Source: Thermoanaerobaculia bacterium (lineage in GTDB: Bacteria > Acidobacteriota > Thermoanaerobaculia > Multivoradales > Multivoraceae). Taken from it: 64,000 nucleotides of DNA. Positions 55,389-62,054 of the stretch are shown piece after piece (the first letter of the stretch is position 1; each line of letters starts with the position of its first letter). Where the stretch lies: assembly GCA_963666565.1 (NCBI GenBank), contig OY762911.1, positions 1,120,001 through 1,184,000 of the forward strand, written 5' to 3'. The position numbers and the translations under genes were made by a program. The notes under the pieces were generated by a model. That model did not search any database, was not told the origin of the DNA, and saw only the letters and a list, made by a program, of their open reading frames with translations.

Positions 55389-55420
55389 GGAAGGCGCGAC
55401 TCTAGCGCGACGGTGCCGGA

Positions 55421-55565
55421 CTGGGTGCGCGGGTCTTCCGACCCGCCTTCGGGCGAAGCCGCGGAGCGGCGCAGCCCGAGAACCGAATCAGCCGCCGGCC
55501 CGAGGCCGGCGACGTTCTGTTTGGCCGCCTGCGGCGGCAGCGGCTCAGAAGACCCGCGCACCCAG
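55421..55565. mobile_element. ~145-bp composite REP doublet
   Basis: Inverted ends CTGGGTGCGCGGGTC...GACCCGCGCACCCAG. Confidence 0.8.
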
Positions 55566-55587
55566 CGGAAGGGCCGCCTTCGCCGCG

Positions 55588-56724
55588 CTAGGGAGGCGCC
55601 GAGAGCCGCACCTCCGCCTCGGTCTCCTCTTCGCCGCGCAGCAGGGTGACGGTCACGGTGTCCCCCGGCTGCTGCCGCTCGAGCACCGCGCGGATGTCGG
55701 GCACCGACCGGACCGGCTGACCCTCGATCGCGACGATCACGTCGCCGAGGACGAAGTTGCCGCGCCGCGCTTCGCGAATGCCCCGGAGCCCGGCGCGGTC
55801 CGCGCCCGAGTTCCGAACGACGTCCCAGACGACCACGCCGTCGACCGGCGGCCGTACCCGCGTGCCTTCGACGAGGCTGACCCCGAGTTGCGGGCGGTTC
55901 ACCTGCCCGTGGGCGATCAGCTCCGGAACGACCCAGTTCACGGTGTCCACCGGGATGGCGAAGCCGATGCCGGCCCAGGCGCCGCCGGACGCGACGATCT
56001 GCGTGTTGACGCCGATCAACCGGCCGCTCGAGTCGAGGAGCGGCCCCCCGGAGTTGCCGGGGTTGATCGCGGCGTCCGTCTGAATGACGCCCTCCAGTTC
56101 CCGGCCCGTGATCGACTGCACTTCCCGGTCGAGGGCGCTGATCACGCCGGTCGTCAGGGTGTAGTCGAGGCCGAAGGGGTTGCCGATCGCCAGCACCGAC
56201 TGGCCGACCTGCAGGTCGTTCGACGACCCGACGGGGATCGGCCGCAACTTCTCCGGAGGCGCTTCGATCCGGAGAACGGCGAGGTCCATGTCCGGGTCGG
56301 TGCCCACCAGGGAAGCCGGCCAGGTCGTCTGGTCGTGGAGGGTGACCTCGGCGGCCTGGGCGTTCTGGATGACGTGGAAGTTCGTGACGATGTGGCCCCT
56401 GTCGTCCCACAGGAAGCCGCTGCCGGTGCCGTCCTGAACGCGGTCGATGCGCCGTCCCAGGAAGCTGACGCGCCGTTCGCGCAGGGTCGTGATGTAGACG
56501 ACCGACGGCTGGGTCTCGCGGAAGAGATTGACCGTGGCGCGCTCCTCGGGGAGGAGCCCCGAACTCGGGGTAACCGGCCGCGGCTCGCCCTGACTCTCCG
56601 CCTGGAGCACGTTGCCCTGCCAGCGCGAGCCCACCAGGAAGGCGAGCCCGGCGAGCACGAGGAGGCCCGCCGCCGTGGCGATCCGCGGCCGTTCGGTGGG
56701 GCCGCGTTGGACTCCGTCGGGCAT
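55588..56724 (-). CDS. HtrA/DegP-family serine protease with one PDZ domain
   Basis: 'GSGF', 'TNFHV', 'IQTDAAINPGNSGGPL'. Confidence 0.93.
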   Translation of the reverse strand: MPDGVQRGPTERPRIATAAGLLVLAGLAFLVGSRWQGNVLQAESQGEPRPVTPSSGLLPEERATVNLFRETQPSVVYITTLRERRVSFLGRRIDRVQDGTGSGFLWDDRGHIVTNFHVIQNAQAAEVTLHDQTTWPASLVGTDPDMDLAVLRIEAPPEKLRPIPVGSSNDLQVGQSVLAIGNPFGLDYTLTTGVISALDREVQSITGRELEGVIQTDAAINPGNSGGPLLDSSGRLIGVNTQIVASGGAWAGIGFAIPVDTVNWVVPELIAHGQVNRPQLGVSLVEGTRVRPPVDGVVVWDVVRNSGADRAGLRGIREARRGNFVLGDVIVAIEGQPVRSVPDIRAVLERQQPGDTVTVTLLRGEEETEAEVRLSAPP

Positions 56725-56773
56725 CGGCCAAAACTAACAGGCGGTTGAGCGGGTTTGTTCCAGCGTGGGTCGG

Positions 56774-56914
56774 CTGGGTGCGCGGGTCTTCCGACCCGCC
56801 CAGGCCAGCGCCGCGGAGCGGCGGAGGCCGCAGAACAAGGCCGCCGGCCAAAGGCCGGCGACGATGCTGGACGCCGCCTGCGGCGGCAGCGGGTCGGAAG
56901 ACCCGCGCACCCAG
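56774..56914. mobile_element. ~141-bp composite REP doublet
   Basis: Perfect 26-bp-class inverted ends and internal hairpin modules. Confidence 0.8.
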
Positions 56915-57050
56915 TCTGGAACGCCGACCGTGGAGCGCTGGCGCCCAGCAAGTCACCGACGGTACACACCGGGTGTGCCGGCGTCCCCGCCGGCTTCCGA
57001 AGAGAACGCGCCGCGAAGCGGCGACCATCCCGGCGGCGTAGACTCCGCGC

Positions 57051-58154
57051 ATGATCCTCACAGGCAAGACAGTCTCCAGGACCGACTTCGAGGCCGGCAC
57101 CGGCTGGCAACTCAAACCGGAGGGCGCCTGCAAGGGCACGGCGTGCATCCCGCTGTTCGGCCGCGCGCCGGCGTCGTCGGGCGAGGTCGACGCGCTGTCC
57201 CTCGCCGAGGCAATCGGCCTGCCGGTCGCGCACGACCCTAAGCACGGCGTCTGGGCCTTGGGCCCGGAGTCGATCGGTTCGCGGGCGCTCGTGTCCGCCG
57301 AGGACGCCGACTTCGAACTGCCGGATCTGGACGGAAAGCCGTTTCGACTGTCCAGTCTGCGCGGGCGGAAGGTCGTCGTCTACGCCTGGGCGCCCTACTG
57401 AGGCTGCTCGGCCCACCTGCCCGGGTGGCAGGCGTTGCGCGACGAGCTTCATCCGCGGGGGTTCGAACTGGTCACGGTCGGTCTCGACACGCTGGGGGCC
57501 GAAGGCTGCCGCCGCTTCATCGAGGCCGCGAAGCCGAAGCACCCTTCGCTGGTCGACGAGCGCCACCTGCTGGCGCGGCTCTTCGGCGTCGTCAACATCC
57601 CCAGTTCGGTGTGGATCGACGAAGCGGGCACGATCGTCCGGCCCGCCGAGGCCGCGCCGGCGCCGCCCGCCGGCGGCGGTCCGAGCTTGAGAACCGGTTC
57701 GGGGATTCCGGGCCGTTTCGGAGAGATGCTGGAGGAGGCGGCGAAGATCCCGGCCGACACGGACGACTACCACCGGGCGCTGCGCAACTGGGTCCAGAAG
57801 GGTGCCGCGAGCCGGTTCGCGCTCTCGCCGGAGGAAGTCGTCGAGCGGTCGCGCCCGCGCAACGCCGACGTGTCGCTCGGCCACGCCCACTTCGAGCTCG
57901 CCTCGCACCTGGAGAGGGAAGGCCATCACGAAGCCGCGGTCCGCCATTTCCGCGAGGCGCACCGGCTGGTGCCCGAGAGCTGGAGCTTCCGCCGCCAAGC
58001 CTGGTCGCTCGAAGGCGGCGCCGAGGGACCGCTCGCACGCTTCTGGCAGGGGCCGAGCGAGGACGATCCCGAGGCGTGGCCCTACGAAGGCGACTGGCTG
58101 AGCGACATCCGCGCCGAGGGCCCGGAGAACTACGCGGAGCGCTTCGAACCGTAG
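57051..58154 (+). CDS. Prx-like/TlpA redoxin, putative UGC-type selenoprotein (TGA 57399-57401)
   Basis: ORFs 57051..57401 and 57435..58154 are in frame; 'DFELPDLDG...LSSLRGRKVVVYAWAPY-U-GCSAHLPGWQ'; SECIS-like hairpin follows. Confidence 0.82.
57402..57432 (+). promoter_or_regulatory. Putative bacterial SECIS element
   Basis: 14 nt after TGA: stem CCTGCC, loop CGGGT, stem GGCAGG. Confidence 0.62.
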
Positions 58155-58160
58155 TTTCTG

Positions 58161-58230
58161 CTGGATGCGCGGGTCCTCTGACCCGCTGCCGCCGCAGGCG
58201 GCCAGGAACGCCGCCGGCCGAAGGCCGGCT
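58161..58230 (+). repeat. REP-like element, right-arm form
   Basis: CTGGATGCGCGGGTCCTCTGACCCGCTGCCGCCGCAGGCGGCCAGGAACGC. Confidence 0.8.
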
Positions 58231-58243
58231 CCGGTCTCTGGCA

Positions 58244-58873
58244 CTACCAGAAAGCTGGACGATAGTCCCGCGGATCGAGGCAGTTATCGTAGAGGTCGCG
58301 GTCCAGAACGATCCAGTCCGTCCGGTCGATGCTCTTGCGCGATGTGGCTGTTGAACTGACCGGGTAAGCGCAGGCGATCTTCAGCCAGCGGCCAGCGGTG
58401 CGCGCAATGTCCCGAATCTCGGATGCCACCTCGGCGAGATCCTGGTCCTGGCTGAAGACGATGGCGACATCCAACTCGCCGTTCCGCGCCATTCGGACAA
58501 CGTCGAGTCCGAGGCGGAGGTCGATGCCTTTCTCTCGAGGAACAAGAACCTCCTTGGAGGAGCCGCCGGGCAGACGGATAGCCTCGCGACGGTAGCGCAG
58601 GGGCCGTGAGGTTACGTGGATGCCTGCACGCCTCATGGCCACTAGACGGCGGGACCAGTAGCCATGCCATCGCGGATCATGCCGGCGGCTGGGAACTCCC
58701 GTGTAGAAGCGGACCTGCTGGCTGAACCACCCCCGTCGCGCGGACACTGCCTCGGCAAGCAGCGACGGATCGTAGTTGGGGTGGTAGTGGCCGAACGCAT
58801 CCTTGGCATGGCGGAACAGGTTCTGGCCATCGACGAACGAGACGGCGCGCTTGGTCGGGGGTTCGGGCGGCAT
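58244..58873 (-). CDS. NYN-domain (LabA/DUF88, PIN-like) predicted RNase
   Basis: 'FVDGQNL', 'VRFYT', 'EKGIDL', 'FSQDQDL'; acidic active-site residues intact. Confidence 0.9.
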   Translation of the reverse strand: MPPEPPTKRAVSFVDGQNLFRHAKDAFGHYHPNYDPSLLAEAVSARRGWFSQQVRFYTGVPSRRHDPRWHGYWSRRLVAMRRAGIHVTSRPLRYRREAIRLPGGSSKEVLVPREKGIDLRLGLDVVRMARNGELDVAIVFSQDQDLAEVASEIRDIARTAGRWLKIACAYPVSSTATSRKSIDRTDWIVLDRDLYDNCLDPRDYRPAFW

Positions 58874-58882
58874 TCGATTGTC

Positions 58883-58931
58883 AAAAAAATAACCCTACCG
58901 GGGCCTCGGAAATGAGGCTAGTCCGGTAGGG
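58883..58931 (-). terminator. Intrinsic terminator in the 5' leader of the NYN gene
   Basis: Minus strand CCCUACCGG-ACUA-GCCUC-AUUUCC-GAGGC-C-CCGGUAGGG-UUAUUUUUUU. Confidence 0.75.
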
Positions 58932-58938
58932 AGCAAGT
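58883..58938 (-). ncRNA. Candidate ~55-nt leader/antitoxin RNA upstream of the NYN nuclease
   Basis: Inferred from the promoter (TSS near 58938) and the terminator; no family recognised. Confidence 0.45.
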
Positions 58939-58944
58939 GACGGA

Positions 58945-58973
58945 AGGCTAGAGGCCGGCTGGCTACATGTCAA
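58945..58973 (-). promoter_or_regulatory. sigma70-type promoter of the leader RNA/NYN unit
   Basis: Minus strand TTGACA (58973-58968), 17 nt, TAGCCT (58950-58945). Confidence 0.72.
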
Positions 58974-58978
58974 GGTGT

Positions 58979-59058
58979 CCCGGGTGCAGCGGGTCTTTGG
59001 GCGCTCGCCGCTGCCGCCTCGGGCGGCCAGGAACGCGCCGCTTGGCGAAGCCCGGCGT
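58979..59058 (+). repeat. Degenerate REP-like element
   Basis: CCGGGTGCAGCGGGTCTT...CCGCTGCCGCCTCGGGCGGCCAGGAACGC, sharing its tail with 58161. Confidence 0.55.
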
Positions 59059-59083
59059 CCTTCCCCGGCTACGATTCGCGCCG

Positions 59084-60745
59084 ATGCGCCTCAGCGACGC
59101 CGACGCTCGCCTCGCGGCAGCCCTGGAGGAACGCCGCCGGCAGTGGCGTGAAATCGACGGCACGGCTCGAGTCTGGTCCCGCGACGGCTCGCTCTGGACC
59201 GATTCCGGGGAGGAGGAGTGGCTCGGCTGGCTCGATGTCGAACGCCTGGGCTGGCTGACCCTCCTTGACGCCGACGGCAGGCGCGTCGATACGGAGGCCG
59301 CCAAGCTCGCCCGGCATCTCTCGGGTCCGCCGTTCGAGCGCTGCCTGCTGCTCGGCATGGGCGGTTCGGCCCTCGGCGCCGACCTCCTCTGGCGCTCGCT
59401 GCCGCGGCGGGCCAGCGCCGACTTCATCGTCCTCGACACGACGGACCCGCGCGAGATCGCCGCCGCGGTCGACGGAGTGGACCCGGCGGCGCTGCGGGTC
59501 GTCGCGGCGTCGAAGTCGGGCGGGACGCTGGAGACGCGGCTGGCGTTCGAGTTGCTGCTCGACCGGCTGGACGATGCGGCGCCCGCGGCCGCGCTGGCGA
59601 TCACCGACCCCGGGTCGGCCCTGGAGGCGCGAGCGAGGTCCGCCGGCGTGCCGGTCGCGTTCGGCCGTCCGGACATCGGCGGCCGGTTCTCCGTGCTCTC
59701 CGCCTTCGGCCTGGTGCCGGCGGCGGTCGCCGGAACAGATCCCGAACCCCTGCTGGCGAGCGCGGCGTCGATGGCCGCGGCGTGCCGCCTCGACGCCGGT
59801 GCAGGCGCTGATACCGACGTCGACGCCGGCGCCAGCGAGGCGCCCGCCAATCCCGGCGTCGAACTGGGCCTGCTGCTCGCCGCGGCGCACGACTGCGGCC
59901 GCGACAAGCTGTACCTCCACGCGCCGGACGGTTGCGCGACGATGGTCGCCTGGGTGGAGCAGCTACTCGCCGAGTCCCTTGGCAAGGGCGACGTGCTGCT
60001 GCTGCCGGTCGCGGCGGCCGGTTTGTCTGAGGCGCCGGGGCCCGATCGACTCGACATCGTGCTGGGAAGCGGCGCTAGTACCGGTGTGCCCGCGGGCGCG
60101 CCACTGGCGCACATCGAAGCAGACCTCCCGGCCGATCTCGGCGGCGAGTTCTTTCGCTGGCAGTTCGCCACGTCGGTGGCCGGCGCGTTGCTCGGTGTCA
60201 ACCCGTTCGACCAGCCGGACGTGGAGTCATCCAAGGTCGTCACGCGGCGGTACGTCGAGCGGATGAAGGCCGGCGATGCACCGCCGCCGGGCGGCGTGGT
60301 GCGGCTGAGCGAAGTCAGCGCGCTCGGCCTCGCCGAACTCCTGGGCACGCACCTGGCGACGCTCCCGGAGCGCGGCTACGCCGTCGTGTCGGCCTACCTG
60401 GACCGCAGCCGGCGCAACCGCGAGTTGCTGGAGACCCTGCGTCGGCGCATCGCCGGCGCGACGGGCGGCGCGTCCGTGCTCGGCTTCGGGCCCAGCTTCC
60501 TGCACTCGACCGGCCAAGCCCACAAGGGCGGACCGAACCGGGGGCTCTTCCTCCAGATCACGGCCGATCCGCCGGCCGCCGACGTCGCGGTTCCCGGCGA
60601 AGACCTGACTCTCGGAAAGGTCCAGCTCGCCCAGGCCTGGGGCGACTACGAGGTGCTGGCGGAACGTGGCCGGCGGATCCTCGCCATCCATATCGACGGC
60701 GACGTGGAGGCGGGGCTCCGGCGGTTGACCGAGGCCATCGCCTAG
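59084..60745 (+). CDS. pgi: Glucose-6-phosphate isomerase (PGI moiety of the Tal-Pgi type)
   Basis: 'WLGWL', 'GMGGSALG', 'SKSGGTLET', 'DIGGRFSVLS', 'NPFDQPDVESSK', 'HSTGQAHKGG'. Confidence 0.85.
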   Translation: MRLSDADARLAAALEERRRQWREIDGTARVWSRDGSLWTDSGEEEWLGWLDVERLGWLTLLDADGRRVDTEAAKLARHLSGPPFERCLLLGMGGSALGADLLWRSLPRRASADFIVLDTTDPREIAAAVDGVDPAALRVVAASKSGGTLETRLAFELLLDRLDDAAPAAALAITDPGSALEARARSAGVPVAFGRPDIGGRFSVLSAFGLVPAAVAGTDPEPLLASAASMAAACRLDAGAGADTDVDAGASEAPANPGVELGLLLAAAHDCGRDKLYLHAPDGCATMVAWVEQLLAESLGKGDVLLLPVAAAGLSEAPGPDRLDIVLGSGASTGVPAGAPLAHIEADLPADLGGEFFRWQFATSVAGALLGVNPFDQPDVESSKVVTRRYVERMKAGDAPPPGGVVRLSEVSALGLAELLGTHLATLPERGYAVVSAYLDRSRRNRELLETLRRRIAGATGGASVLGFGPSFLHSTGQAHKGGPNRGLFLQITADPPAADVAVPGEDLTLGKVQLAQAWGDYEVLAERGRRILAIHIDGDVEAGLRRLTEAIA

Positions 60746-60756
60746 CGAGGCAGAAA

Positions 60757-60782
60757 CCGGGTGCGCGGGTCTTCCGACCCGC
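60757..60782 (+). repeat. REP-like core copy
   Basis: CCGGGTGCGCGGGTCTTCCGACCCGC. Confidence 0.85.
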
Positions 60783-60863
60783 ATCCGGCGCGAAGCGCCG
60801 GTTTCTGGACCTTCTGCCGCGCCGGGCCGAGGGGCGCTCTCCCGGCGCGAGTCGCCCCTGGCG

Positions 60864-61148
60864 CTACCGGCGGCCGCGCCGCCGGCCCCGCCCTCCAGCC
60901 GGCTTGCCCGTCAACTCGTCGAGGCCGACGTTGAACTCGGCCACGATGCGGATCAGCACGTCGAGGCTTACCCGCAGTTCGTCGCGCTCGATGCGCGAGA
61001 GATCCGACGCCGGGATGCCGACCCGCTCCGCCAGCGCCGGCTGCGTCAGCTTGTTCTTCCGTCGCAGGCGCCGGATCCGGTGGCCCATGAGCTGGACCTG
61101 CCGGACGGGGGCTTGCTGCGCTGGAGCTTCCTGGTTCATCGCCGTCAT
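60864..61148 (-). CDS. XRE-family HTH regulator
   Basis: 'GHRIRRLRRKNKLTQPALAERVGIPASDLSRIER'. Confidence 0.85.
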   Translation of the reverse strand: MTAMNQEAPAQQAPVRQVQLMGHRIRRLRRKNKLTQPALAERVGIPASDLSRIERDELRVSLDVLIRIVAEFNVGLDELTGKPAGGRGRRRGRR

Positions 61149-61192
61149 CGCCCGAGAGACGGGCAATCCTAGCGGCGCAGGCCACATCGGTG

Positions 61193-61315
61193 CCGGCCTT
61201 CGGCCGGCGCGTCCTTTCGGCCGCCTTCGGCGGTAGCGGATCAGAGGACCCGCGCACCCGGCGCGTCCTTTCGGCCGGCTTCGGCGGCAGCGGGTCGGAG
61301 GACCCGCGCACCCAG
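61193..61315 (-). repeat. Tandem pair of REP-like right arms (54-bp period)
   Basis: GCGCGTCCTTTCGGCCG...GACCCGCGCACCC twice. Confidence 0.85.
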
Positions 61316-61322
61316 CGGCCGA

Positions 61323-62054
61323 TCAGACCGACGTGCGGAGATTCTCGTTGGCGGTGATCGTCGCTCCGCTCGCTTTGTAGCGCTCCCGGCGCTCCTTGCT
61401 GAAGCTGTCGACCTCGTCCTTCGGCACGCCGTAGGCCACTCCCCTGTCCACGCCGGGGCGCGCGCGAACGCGCTTCATCCAGTCCACGACGGCGGGCTGG
61501 GTCGTGATGTCGACCTTGGCCCACTTGTACGCCCGGATCCACGGGAACGCGGCGATGTCGGCAACGGTGAAGTCGTCCCCGCAGATGTAGGGGTGCTTCT
61601 CGAACCGGCGGCCGAGAATCGCCACCAGCCGGAGCGACTCCCTCCCGAACCGTTCCAGCGGGTGCGCCTTCTCCTCGTCGGGCACGTCGATGTAGCGCGT
61701 GTAGCTCACCATGTTGCCGAACGCCGGTCCCAGGTTGGCGGCCTGCCAGTAGAGCCACGGGAGCACGTTCCAGCGCCGCTCGTCCGTCGGCAAGAGCGAA
61801 GTCGGGTACCTCTCCCCGAGGTACTGCAGGATGGCGCAGCTCTCCATGACGGCGCGGCCGTCGTCCACCAGGGCCGGTTGCTTCTGGTTCGGGTTGACGG
61901 CGGTGAACTCGGGCGTGAACTGCTCGCCGGCCGAGAGGTCGACCATGTGGATGCGCGTCTCGGGCAGTTCGACTCCCGCTTCGCGTAGCTCCTCCAGCAT
62001 GATCGAGATCTTCCAGCCGTTGGGCGTCGCGCCCATGTAGACGTCAAGAGCCAT
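61323..62054 (-). CDS. Glutathione S-transferase (YfcG/YghU, Nu-class-like)
   Basis: 'TPNGWKISIMLEEL', 'NPNQKQPAL', 'ESCAILQYL', 'FTVADIAAFPW'. Confidence 0.9.
   Translation of the reverse strand: MALDVYMGATPNGWKISIMLEELREAGVELPETRIHMVDLSAGEQFTPEFTAVNPNQKQPALVDDGRAVMESCAILQYLGERYPTSLLPTDERRWNVLPWLYWQAANLGPAFGNMVSYTRYIDVPDEEKAHPLERFGRESLRLVAILGRRFEKHPYICGDDFTVADIAAFPWIRAYKWAKVDITTQPAVVDWMKRVRARPGVDRGVAYGVPKDEVDSFSKERRERYKASGATITANENLRTSV

Follow-up and report, generated by a model that had tools for sequence, protein, structure and literature searches.

A conserved hairpin RNA at the head of a mobile NYN nuclease cassette in bacteria: a predicted terminator and candidate partner of the nuclease

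Introduction

Type III toxin-antitoxin operons, as outlined in the accessible part of PMC13682666, consist of a promoter, a non-coding RNA, a Rho-independent terminator and an endoribonuclease gene, and one antitoxin repeat is sufficient. Mimicry of the ToxI RNA by phages has also been reported, according to the accessible part of PMC3475682. In this study, we analyzed a putative promoter, a small hairpin RNA and a gene for an NYN (PIN-like) nuclease that follow one another on the minus strand of a 64,000-nucleotide stretch of DNA from a Thermoanaerobaculia bacterium (GenBank assembly GCA_963666565.1, contig OY762911.1, positions 1,120,001 to 1,184,000), hereafter called the window. The module of RNA and NYN gene appears to be real and undescribed, judging from comparison of sequences, and we offer its mode of action as a proposal.

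An earlier note, made from the letters of this DNA, had called the locus a candidate type III-like system. On the one hand, the order of one promoter, RNA, terminator and RNase gene is, by sequence, that of ToxIN, CptIN and TenpIN as far as PMC13682666 describes it. A protein antitoxin is likewise absent, the distribution is patchy and linked to mobile elements, and a phage-borne RNA mimic is a known counter-move in those systems, in the account of PMC3475682. On the other hand, the nuclease here is NYN/PIN-like and not of the ToxN/AbiQ fold, and a single hairpin takes the place of a tandem array, the terminator hairpin itself being the conserved RNA. Because the toxin fold differs and there is no repeat array, the cassette is not a member of ToxIN, CptIN or TenpIN; the layout in the earlier proposal stands, but the toxin fold and the array of the class are missing.

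Ribonuclease genes with a conserved stem-loop in their own transcript are also known. As the accessible parts of the two sources have it, the RNase encoded by rne in E. coli limits its own synthesis via a stem-loop in the 5' untranslated region (PMC13692253), and the mammalian NYN RNase Regnase-1 degrades its own mRNA through a stem-loop in the 3' untranslated region (PMC12982082). Unlike the hairpin described here, those elements are not terminators, give no abundant separate short RNA of the kind predicted below, do not move with their gene across phyla and do not occur alone in phages. A constitutive promoter followed at once by an intrinsic terminator before harmful genes is the plan of lambda PR'-tR', whose terminated transcript can act as a small RNA (6S RNA, StxS), as far as PMC7547250 describes it. 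PR'-tR' is opened by the promoter-loaded Q antiterminator, whereas no such factor or conserved promoter-proximal site was seen here, and the present transcript is much shorter and conserved in sequence across phyla.

With regard to the protein, the PADLOC candidate HEC-09, an NYN protein embedded in Hma systems, is also a predicted NYN RNase and was found by its place inside defence loci. Unlike the present nuclease, it has an N-terminal helix-turn-helix-like part, and the accessible part of its description reports no RNA (10.1101/2024.01.29.577857). The best structural match is a LabA-like/DUF88 protein of the same Pfam family (2qip); it is only 21% identical, and the subfamily here differs from it in extra strands and a conserved C-terminal tail. 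To our knowledge, and with no search aimed at it, the LabA group has no reported leader RNA. Bacteria encode many NYN/PIN-like nucleases, and for most of them we know of neither a target nor a mode of control.

Results

Anatomy of the locus

The earlier note had read promoter, hairpin, U-tract and NYN gene in this order, and direct reading of the minus strand confirmed each element at its place:

58968..58973, minus strand: -35 hexamer TTGACA, read directly, a perfect match to the consensus
58945..58950, minus strand: -10 hexamer TAGCCT, 17-nt spacer from the -35, weak (3 of 6 positions to TATAAT)
58938, minus strand: predicted transcription start, a conserved A (A in 83 of 86 homologous loci)
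58883..58941, minus strand: conserved RNA motif of 5' tail AYUUGCU, hairpin and UUAU with U-run, as defined by covariance model R1
58923..58931, minus strand: 5' arm of P1, CCCUACCGG, 9-bp outer stem
58893..58901, minus strand: 3' arm of P1, CCGGUAGGG, pairing with 58931-58923
58903..58918, minus strand: apical part, P2 GCCUC/GAGGC (5 bp, 58918-58914 with 58907-58903) and loop AUUUCC
58883..58892, minus strand: U-rich tail UUAUUUUUUU, with the hairpin an intrinsic-terminator-like site
58244..58873, minus strand: NYN (PIN-like) nuclease gene, 209 amino acids, from the open reading frame (ORF) and Pfam NYN PF01936

The proposed promoter has a perfect -35 hexamer, the stated 17-nt spacing and a weak -10 hexamer. 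Its assignment in the window rests on the -35 hexamer, the spacing and the conservation of a promoter in homologous loci, and we treat it as probable. The leader folds at -28.1 kcal/mol (z -4.93), with an equally good fold in none of 200 shuffles, which agrees with the stem of 9 plus 5 bp described before. The internal loop between P1 and P2 is indeed asymmetric, with ACUA on the 5' side and C on the 3' side. Nothing else conserved was seen in the minimum-energy fold of the leader, and no tandem repeat was found in it.

A terminator scan of the 6-kb interval 56000-62000 reported the hairpin/U-run site, with 7 terminator-like sites versus 2.6 expected in the interval. The U-tail contains the only T7 run on both strands of the window (0.23 expected), so the description of the U-tract as unusual for this GC-rich DNA was correct. 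The end of UUAUUUUUUU lies 9 nt before the ATG at 58873, and no Shine-Dalgarno (SD)-like word was seen before this ATG, as had also been said. The window motif scores 63.8 bits against R1 (E 2.2e-12) and is the sole strong match in the 4.79-Mb genome, which holds a single copy each of the NYN gene and the RNA. The gene upstream of the cassette is on the opposite strand.

The hairpin across NYN homologues

The earlier note had named as a test a covarying upstream hairpin with a U-tract among close homologues. We assembled 87 loci chosen by the NYN protein alone, namely the window locus, 6 loci from related genomes and 80 of at least 548 relatives. Record titles place them in Acidobacteriota, Alpha-, Beta- and Gammaproteobacteria, Actinobacteriota, Chloroflexota, Planctomycetota, Verrucomicrobiota, Gemmatimonadota, Nitrospirota, Myxococcota, Bipolaricaulota, Spirochaetia and others, over a dozen phyla in all; one locus (L080) is that of a cultured strain, Rhodopseudomonas faecalis JCM 11668. 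A simple scanner detected the hairpin in 76 of the 87 loci. Three of them, with long apical insertions, were set aside, and the other 73 were aligned to build the covariance model R1.

R1 found the motif in all 87 loci, always upstream of the NYN gene and always on its strand, and all 14 loci outside its seed were recovered. The model was also specific, with 88 matches in 629,568 bases on both strands, and the sole extra match also precedes a gene. Each NYN gene has one R1 match, a single hairpin and no array; the absence of repeats noted earlier thus extends from the leader in the window to the homologues.

The pairing of the stem is supported by covariation. In the R1-fitted alignment, 92.8% of cells are paired and 9 of 13 pairs show changes on both sides, counts that lean towards structure because the alignment was fitted to the model. 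No shuffle out of 500 reached the observed pairing score, and slid-partner controls were far lower. The same compensatory series is read in raw sequences, as in CCCUACCGG/CCGGUAGGG, CCCCACCGG/CCGGUGGGG and CCCCGCUCG/CGGGCGGGG, and one pair in a second sample occurred as CG 41 times, GC 41 times and GU 7 times.

Conservation extends to the sequence itself. Four invariant C-G pairs (CCCC/GGGG) stand at the base of the 9-bp stem, the 5' side of the internal loop has a near-invariant A, the internal loop has a conserved GAC, and the 5' tail AYUUGCU is kept, all while the NYN proteins diverge down to 50% identity. The apical part is variable: its loop can be of the GNRA or the UUCG kind, and insertions in it reach 20-35 nt. 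Taken together, the comparison firmly supports selection on the RNA sequence beyond what the fold would need, and firmly marks the motif as a widespread and apparently new RNA motif. A search with the covariance models of Rfam 15 gave no match over the window leader at E up to 10, and none was found over the motif in 18 viral loci at E up to 1; the Rfam check that the earlier note had suggested therefore showed the motif to be absent from this database. The statement in that note that no NYN/RNA pair of this kind was described also held, since our literature searches found no published bacterial NYN gene with a conserved leader RNA, although papers beyond the searched literature could exist.

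The motif does not accompany the more distant NYN paralogues of three related genomes. Paralogues with 29-34% identity occur in two related genomes (G026, G035) with no motif anywhere, and in a third (G032) the sole motif match is on a different contig from the NYN paralogue.

Two further ideas on the leader were considered and rejected by eye. One was a pseudoknot in which UUGC of the 5' tail would pair with GCAA loops; the tail is also kept where the loop is GAAA or UUCG. The other was a leader peptide; some gene callers run an ORF through the hairpin, yet no conserved start codon was seen.

Promoter, terminator and start codon

Promoter statistics were obtained from the 86 loci with enough upstream sequence. 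A promoter matching the sigma-70 consensus at 9 or more of 12 positions is present in 60 of them, versus 14 of 2000 random 60-mers, and TTGACN is the best -35 hexamer in 61. The -10 hexamer ends 6-9 nt upstream of the conserved A in 57 of the 86. Considering this position, the transcript should begin with AYUUGCU and continue directly into the hairpin, leaving a predicted 6-7 nt before it.

On the other side of the hairpin, at least 7 T are found within 10 nt in 70 of the 87 loci, and the median stem energy is -24.3 kcal/mol. The start codon follows the hairpin by 10-30 nt in 75 of the 87, and an SD-like word is present in 28. These regularities firmly identify the motif as the predicted first transcribed part of a compact NYN cassette and, just as firmly, give it the anatomy expected of a strong promoter-proximal intrinsic terminator.

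The NYN protein

The protein in the window matches Pfam NYN PF01936 with 33 bits (cut-off 24.2) over residues 13-154. The motifs DGQN, EKGID and SQDQD, reported before as intact, are present and are invariant in an alignment of 25 sequences down to 49% identity, as are D15, E114, D118, D143 and D145. Judging from the family, some of these acidic residues would bind the metal. The AlphaFold2 model has a pLDDT (predicted local distance difference test) of 93.8 and supports a PIN-like alpha/beta fold. Its best Foldseek match is 2qip, the LabA-like VPA0982 of Vibrio parahaemolyticus (E 6.8e-7, TM score 0.70 on the target), and the NYN domain of MARF1 (5yaa_D) was matched at E 1.4e-3. The NYN domain begins at residue 9, with no N-terminal domain; the extra strands of the subfamily are at residues 86-113, and the conserved tail is C-terminal.

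An NCBIfam search with the protein gave no meaningful family, and a sequence search of the PDB gave nothing at E below 0.05. The family is large: 4583 proteins were found at E up to 0.001, the top 120 being 61-100% identical and 204-249 amino acids long. In species-representative genomes, at least 548 NYN relatives were counted among 599 candidate stretches.

Mobility, neighbours and decay of the cassette

The DNA that carries the hairpin and the NYN gene is shared between genomes at different sites. The features concerned are:

58242..58959, minus strand: horizontally shared cassette from promoter spacer to stop codon, from DNA similarity with the loci of G019 and G034
58160..58211, no strand assigned: REP (repetitive extragenic palindromic)-like element, GC-rich and palindromic, beside the end of the cassette that holds the stop codon, from repeat analysis
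59008..59036, no strand assigned: degenerate second REP-like copy on the promoter side, a 29-nt direct repeat, 93% identical, family D4

G019:C42 aligns to positions 943-1660 of the query at 86% identity, and G034 aligns to 945-1641 at 81%; both genomes are of the same genus and have their NYN loci at other genome sites. The genes that flank the cassette in the window are direct neighbours in the majority of 40 same-genus genomes; in G027, to name one, the gap between them is 47 nt. In three genomes (G004, G005, G013), one empty-site stretch aligns to both of the REP regions that flank the cassette. The GC content is 0.60-0.67 inside the cassette versus 0.70-0.78 outside. From these comparisons, the cassette is a self-contained, horizontally mobile unit of about 720 bp and an insertion in its own genome.

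No conserved protein neighbour accompanies the cassette: clustering by sequence gave 70 groups for 82 upstream neighbours and 76 groups for 85 downstream ones. The absence of a protein antitoxin from the locus, remarked on earlier, is thus matched by the absence of a conserved protein partner among the homologues. A Pfam scan covered 77 of the 82 upstream neighbours, four near-duplicates being left out and locus L042 being scanned separately. Among the 77, 13 are mobile-element or defence genes (integrases, TrwC relaxase, ParB, HsdM/HsdS, DruA, Uma2, DUF1016, DUF6088/AbiEi and another NYN gene that has an OST-HTH domain), 40 have no family, many of them perhaps spurious ORFs, and the others have housekeeping functions. 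In 4 of the 87 loci (L010, L022, L074, L095), the NYN gene adjoins a type I restriction-modification gene. A plasmid search with the hairpin returned one record, a 2.8-Mb replicon of Methylobacterium bullatum (H33).

Three loci have unusual arrangements. In L037 (2797-3771), the gene immediately before the hairpin-NYN cassette encodes a different, longer NYN protein that has an OST-HTH/LOTUS domain. In L042 (3499-4627), an ORF of 125 amino acids without a Pfam family stands between the RNA and the NYN gene, which are 459 nt apart; a ParB-like ORF was seen upstream by eye, and the additional ORF may have an accessory role or may have been inserted. In L008 (1504-3046, genome G044), two hairpins are about 860 nt apart, the first preceding DUF6088/AbiEi_4 and the second the NYN gene, and an ORF resembling a NERD helicase-type protein by eye follows.

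Among 61 related genomes, the RNA is present in 16 and absent from 45, and an intact NYN gene is present in 9. R1 matches numbered 0-2 in each of 60 relatives, carrier genomes having 1-2 copies. In 8 loci of related genomes, the promoter and the RNA are kept (45-72 bits) and the NYN gene is deleted (G016, G027, the second locus of G019, G032), truncated (G017) or broken, by a stop codon in G013; in G003 and G008 the homology to an intact locus ends right after the U-run. The deletion end-points differ between loci.

The last two loci share a peculiarity. When L115 (G008) and L117 (G003) are compared with L005, homology stops at the identical base after the U-run and foreign DNA follows; in G003, fragments of the NYN gene reappear about 2.3 kb further on. 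The shared break may reflect one common insertion or an insertion hot spot at the terminator.

The REP-like element is a feature of the surroundings in its own right. It is about 50 nt long, has the core GCGGCAGCGGGTCRGARGACCCGCGCACCC and occurs in almost every intergenic gap around the locus, with copies in the window at:

55420-55570
56773-56914
58160-58211
59008-59036
60756-60791
61204-61316

In the own genome and those of the same genus, dozens of matches of 70-85 nt were listed, and there were 193 more.

Next to the cassette, on the plus strand, the ORFs 57051-57401 and 57435-58154 form one frame (57051-58154) joined by an in-frame TGA. If TGA is read as selenocysteine, the product would contain ...VVVYAWAPYUGCS... 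(U117), with a thioredoxin-like WAxxUGC motif.

Hairpin copies away from NYN genes

Scans with a degenerate, exactly matched pattern of the hairpin core gave 31 loci in IMG/VR and at least 80 in JGI metagenomes, 111 together. R1 was used to re-check 100 of them, leaving out L221-L231; four failed and were dropped as chance matches, which leaves 107 true copies, 11 of them without the R1 re-check. Among these listed copies, 56 stand before an NYN gene and 15 before a partial one or just its first codons, 35 are elsewhere, and 1 left no room to judge.

The 35 copies elsewhere (20 viral, 15 metagenomic) are mostly on phage-like contigs without promoter or U-tract. A promoter with at least 9 of 12 matches is present at 1 of these 35 versus 32 of the 56 NYN copies, and a U-rich tail at 14 of the 35 versus 52 of the 56. 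The unit elsewhere starts at the conserved A with the AYUUGCU tail, typically 0-20 nt after a stop codon; 20 copies share the strand of the gene before them, 5 have that gene on the opposite strand, and for 6 no upstream neighbour was called. The genes that precede the hairpin here include those for major head protein, RNase_T exonuclease and thioredoxin and a recurrent unknown family; downstream are genes for terminase large subunit and scaffolding protein, tRNA-Arg and a recurrent unknown family of 175 amino acids. Five viral records of 33-79 kb have one hairpin each and no NYN gene. One record (G065) has, in order, an unknown gene, the hairpin, the 175-aa gene and an orphan N6/N4 DNA methylase. 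From these features, the phage-like contigs appear to keep the RNA and not the terminator function.

A recurrent trio of an unknown protein, the hairpin and the 175-aa protein (alignment A4) is found in L124, L128, L132, L146, L147, L182 and L210. The first protein ends in ...VKDNGVERA...GRAR, and neither protein has a Pfam or PHROG family. Whether the 175-aa protein, encoded behind the hairpin on 7 viral contigs, might be an unrecognized NYN protein was examined by profile comparison, and the idea was rejected at a probability of 0.2. On the viral contig L146 (1501-1611), ARAGORN places a tRNA-Arg(CCG) three bases after the hairpin, which would make this hairpin the 5' leader of a phage tRNA precursor; a weak Rfam match near the motif (mascRNA model, E 0.0049) covers the same stretch that ARAGORN calls tRNA-Arg.

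Discussion

We favour, with a confidence just short of even, a reading in which the hairpin throttles the NYN gene by early termination and is also the specific RNA partner of the nuclease. A sigma-70-type promoter would start transcription at the conserved A, and the first 50-55 nt would fold into the 5' tail, the 9-bp stem, the asymmetric internal loop and the variable apical stem. The hairpin and U-run would act as an intrinsic terminator, so that most transcripts would end as a short RNA and only read-through would reach the NYN gene, whose start codon is some 20 nt downstream and in many cases has no SD sequence. The abundant short RNA would bind NYN and keep the nuclease inactive in the manner of an antitoxin, and the hairpin on the read-through mRNA may exert feedback on how much NYN is made. 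Upon a drop in transcription of the cassette, as might occur in phage infection, the RNA would decay and NYN would be freed to cut RNA. The bare hairpins on phage-like contigs may then be decoys similar to pseudo-ToxI, as that RNA is described in the accessible part of PMC3475682. In this proposal we infer termination in vivo, binding of the RNA by NYN, inhibition, toxicity and any anti-phage role.

Two observations are suggestive for this reading. NYN is the only protein that always accompanies the motif at the loci chosen by protein. On phage-like contigs, the unit begins at the first base of the RNA predicted for NYN cassettes and stops where the hairpin ends, lacking the promoter and often the U-run, which is expected if the RNA itself is the functional object. 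A further step would be that the module represents a new RNA-protein toxin-antitoxin or abortive-infection class, with NYN held in check by a hairpin of about 50 nt that is its own terminator and with phages having captured the bare hairpin as a decoy. We consider this possible but somewhat unlikely. In that case, the hairpin would have been cut in phages exactly to the transcribed RNA, and an arms race would be visible in sequence data.

Several results weigh against a specific partnership of hairpin and nuclease. A promoter-bearing leader precedes every intact NYN gene anyway, so that its presence at 87 of 87 loci cannot separate action in cis from action in trans. The motif is not exclusive to NYN genes, 35 of the 107 copies among the matches listed being in other contexts. 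A few copies with a U-rich tail and promoter matches of 4-9 of 12 precede toxin-antitoxin-type genes, the cargo being MNT-HepT, SocA/Panacea, Xre_MbcA_ParS_C antitoxin, ORF6N or DUF6088/AbiEi, and in another case HigB after a remnant of the NYN start; such cargo fits a portable leader as well as it fits an NYN-specific ligand. The decayed loci that keep the RNA were found via the RNA, so loci that lost both parts would be invisible. In the window, besides the weak -10 hexamer, a strict promoter scan of 56000-62000 called no promoter, because TAGCCT fits TATAAT at only 3 of 6 positions. A blastn search of 50,697 cultured-phage records with the 45-nt motif gave partial matches only (E 0.2-0.8), which we read as chance. 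The nearest model in the PADLOC defence library, HEC-09, matched the NYN protein weakly (E 2.4e-6, 25.4 bits), and the tested HEC-09 representative gave no protection against the phages tried, in the accessible part of that study (10.1101/2024.01.29.577857).

The main rival is a pure cis attenuator or insulator, in which the promoter-proximal terminator would set a very low and context-independent level of a harmful nuclease and block read-in at any site of insertion, with the short RNA as a by-product and no recognition between NYN and the RNA. A hairpin and U-run do lie between promoter and start codon with canonical terminator anatomy and the start codon close behind, the cassette moves between genomes and sites, the identical leader precedes other toxin-antitoxin-type genes, and short terminated by-products are known for PR'-tR' as far as PMC7547250 describes them. 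No competing antiterminator or sensor structure was found upstream of the hairpin, where the tail is only 6-7 nt. A terminator needs a fold and a U-run, yet conservation across phyla extends to the bases of the stem, to the internal loop and to the 5' tail, and the phage-side copies, which keep tail and hairpin, often lose the U-run and have no promoter, pointing to selection beyond termination. Attenuation would account for the order of the parts and for the cargo other than NYN that is seen now and then, but it would leave unexplained why the sequence is conserved and why phage copies can lack the U-run, and we regard it as unlikely, though a real contender. The poised promoter and terminator before toxic genes would also suit a trap sprung by phages, with the hairpin copying a phage cis-element and a phage RNA-binding or antitermination factor opening the terminator to switch on NYN or other cargo. 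The presence of the hairpin on phage-like contigs beside major head, terminase and scaffolding genes and a tRNA would agree with this, as would the antitermination control of PR'-tR' described in the accessible part of PMC7547250. However, no phage protein is common to the hairpin-bearing contigs, their neighbours differ, the placement in phage genomes varies in a way that a fixed regulatory site would not, and the 6-7 nt before the hairpin leave no room for an alternative antiterminator fold, which makes the trap quite improbable.

It is also conceivable that the hairpin is a trans-acting small RNA, or a processing or stability element, with a host partner such as an RNase or RNA chaperone, and that NYN is no more than a passenger behind it. 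Phage-like contigs without NYN do retain the hairpin-only unit, usually co-oriented with the gene upstream, and StxS is a promoter-proximal terminated RNA that became an Hfq-dependent small RNA, according to the accessible part of PMC7547250. Such a function predicts copies at host genes, but carriers hold only NYN-linked copies and 45 of the 61 relatives hold none, so a general host partner is unlikely. In the pattern-based sample, moreover, 71 of the 106 copies with room are linked to NYN or its remnant, and we hold this explanation to be very improbable. We give a similarly low rank to a DNA-level mobile or recombination hairpin of the REP, PATE (palindrome-associated transposable element) or attC type, beside which cassettes would insert and whose RNA would be incidental. 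Hairpin-only copies do occur at varied intergenic sites, 0-20 nt after stop codons, and different cargo genes stand behind one hairpin. However, the numerous copies of REP-, PATE- or MITE (miniature inverted-repeat transposable element)-like families were not found, with 1 strong match in the own genome, 0-2 per relative and 1 in each of five viral records. No second matching end lies across the cassette, which has one R1 match per locus; the homology of cassettes between sites starts in the promoter and not in the hairpin; deletion end-points vary by locus; and the promoter is at a fixed distance, with the motif pointing in the direction of transcription. A specific attC-like site was rejected, since the tail and 3' flank do not appear to fit the R''/R' consensus. 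Finally, the earlier note had named a leftover terminator of a lost upstream gene as the case that would overturn its proposal. GC-rich genomes hold many stable hairpins, and the excess of terminator-like sites in the 6-kb scan would be in line with a chance or leftover structure. The motif at 87 of 87 homologous loci with covariation refutes this, a promoter precedes the hairpin at a constant spacing, and the genes before the cassette differ between loci and in many cases have the opposite orientation, as in the window, so that the probability left for it is negligible.

In summary, this study describes a large NYN subfamily in which each gene has a built-in, sequence-conserved RNA that is outside Rfam. 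If the RNA is the partner of the nuclease, the principle of RNA antitoxins would extend beyond the ToxN fold and beyond repeat arrays, and the cassette, with its two parts in about 720 bp, would be a minimal system in which to study the recognition of a hairpin by a PIN-like RNase. Counter-defence would in that case explain the orphan hairpins of phage-like contigs, and, if a new class is indeed at hand, the hairpin would be a compact, portable and sequence-specific ligand for an NYN nuclease. Even in its plainest reading, the finding is that of a widespread new leader motif, and it shows how a harmful gene can take its own expression valve along in horizontal transfer.

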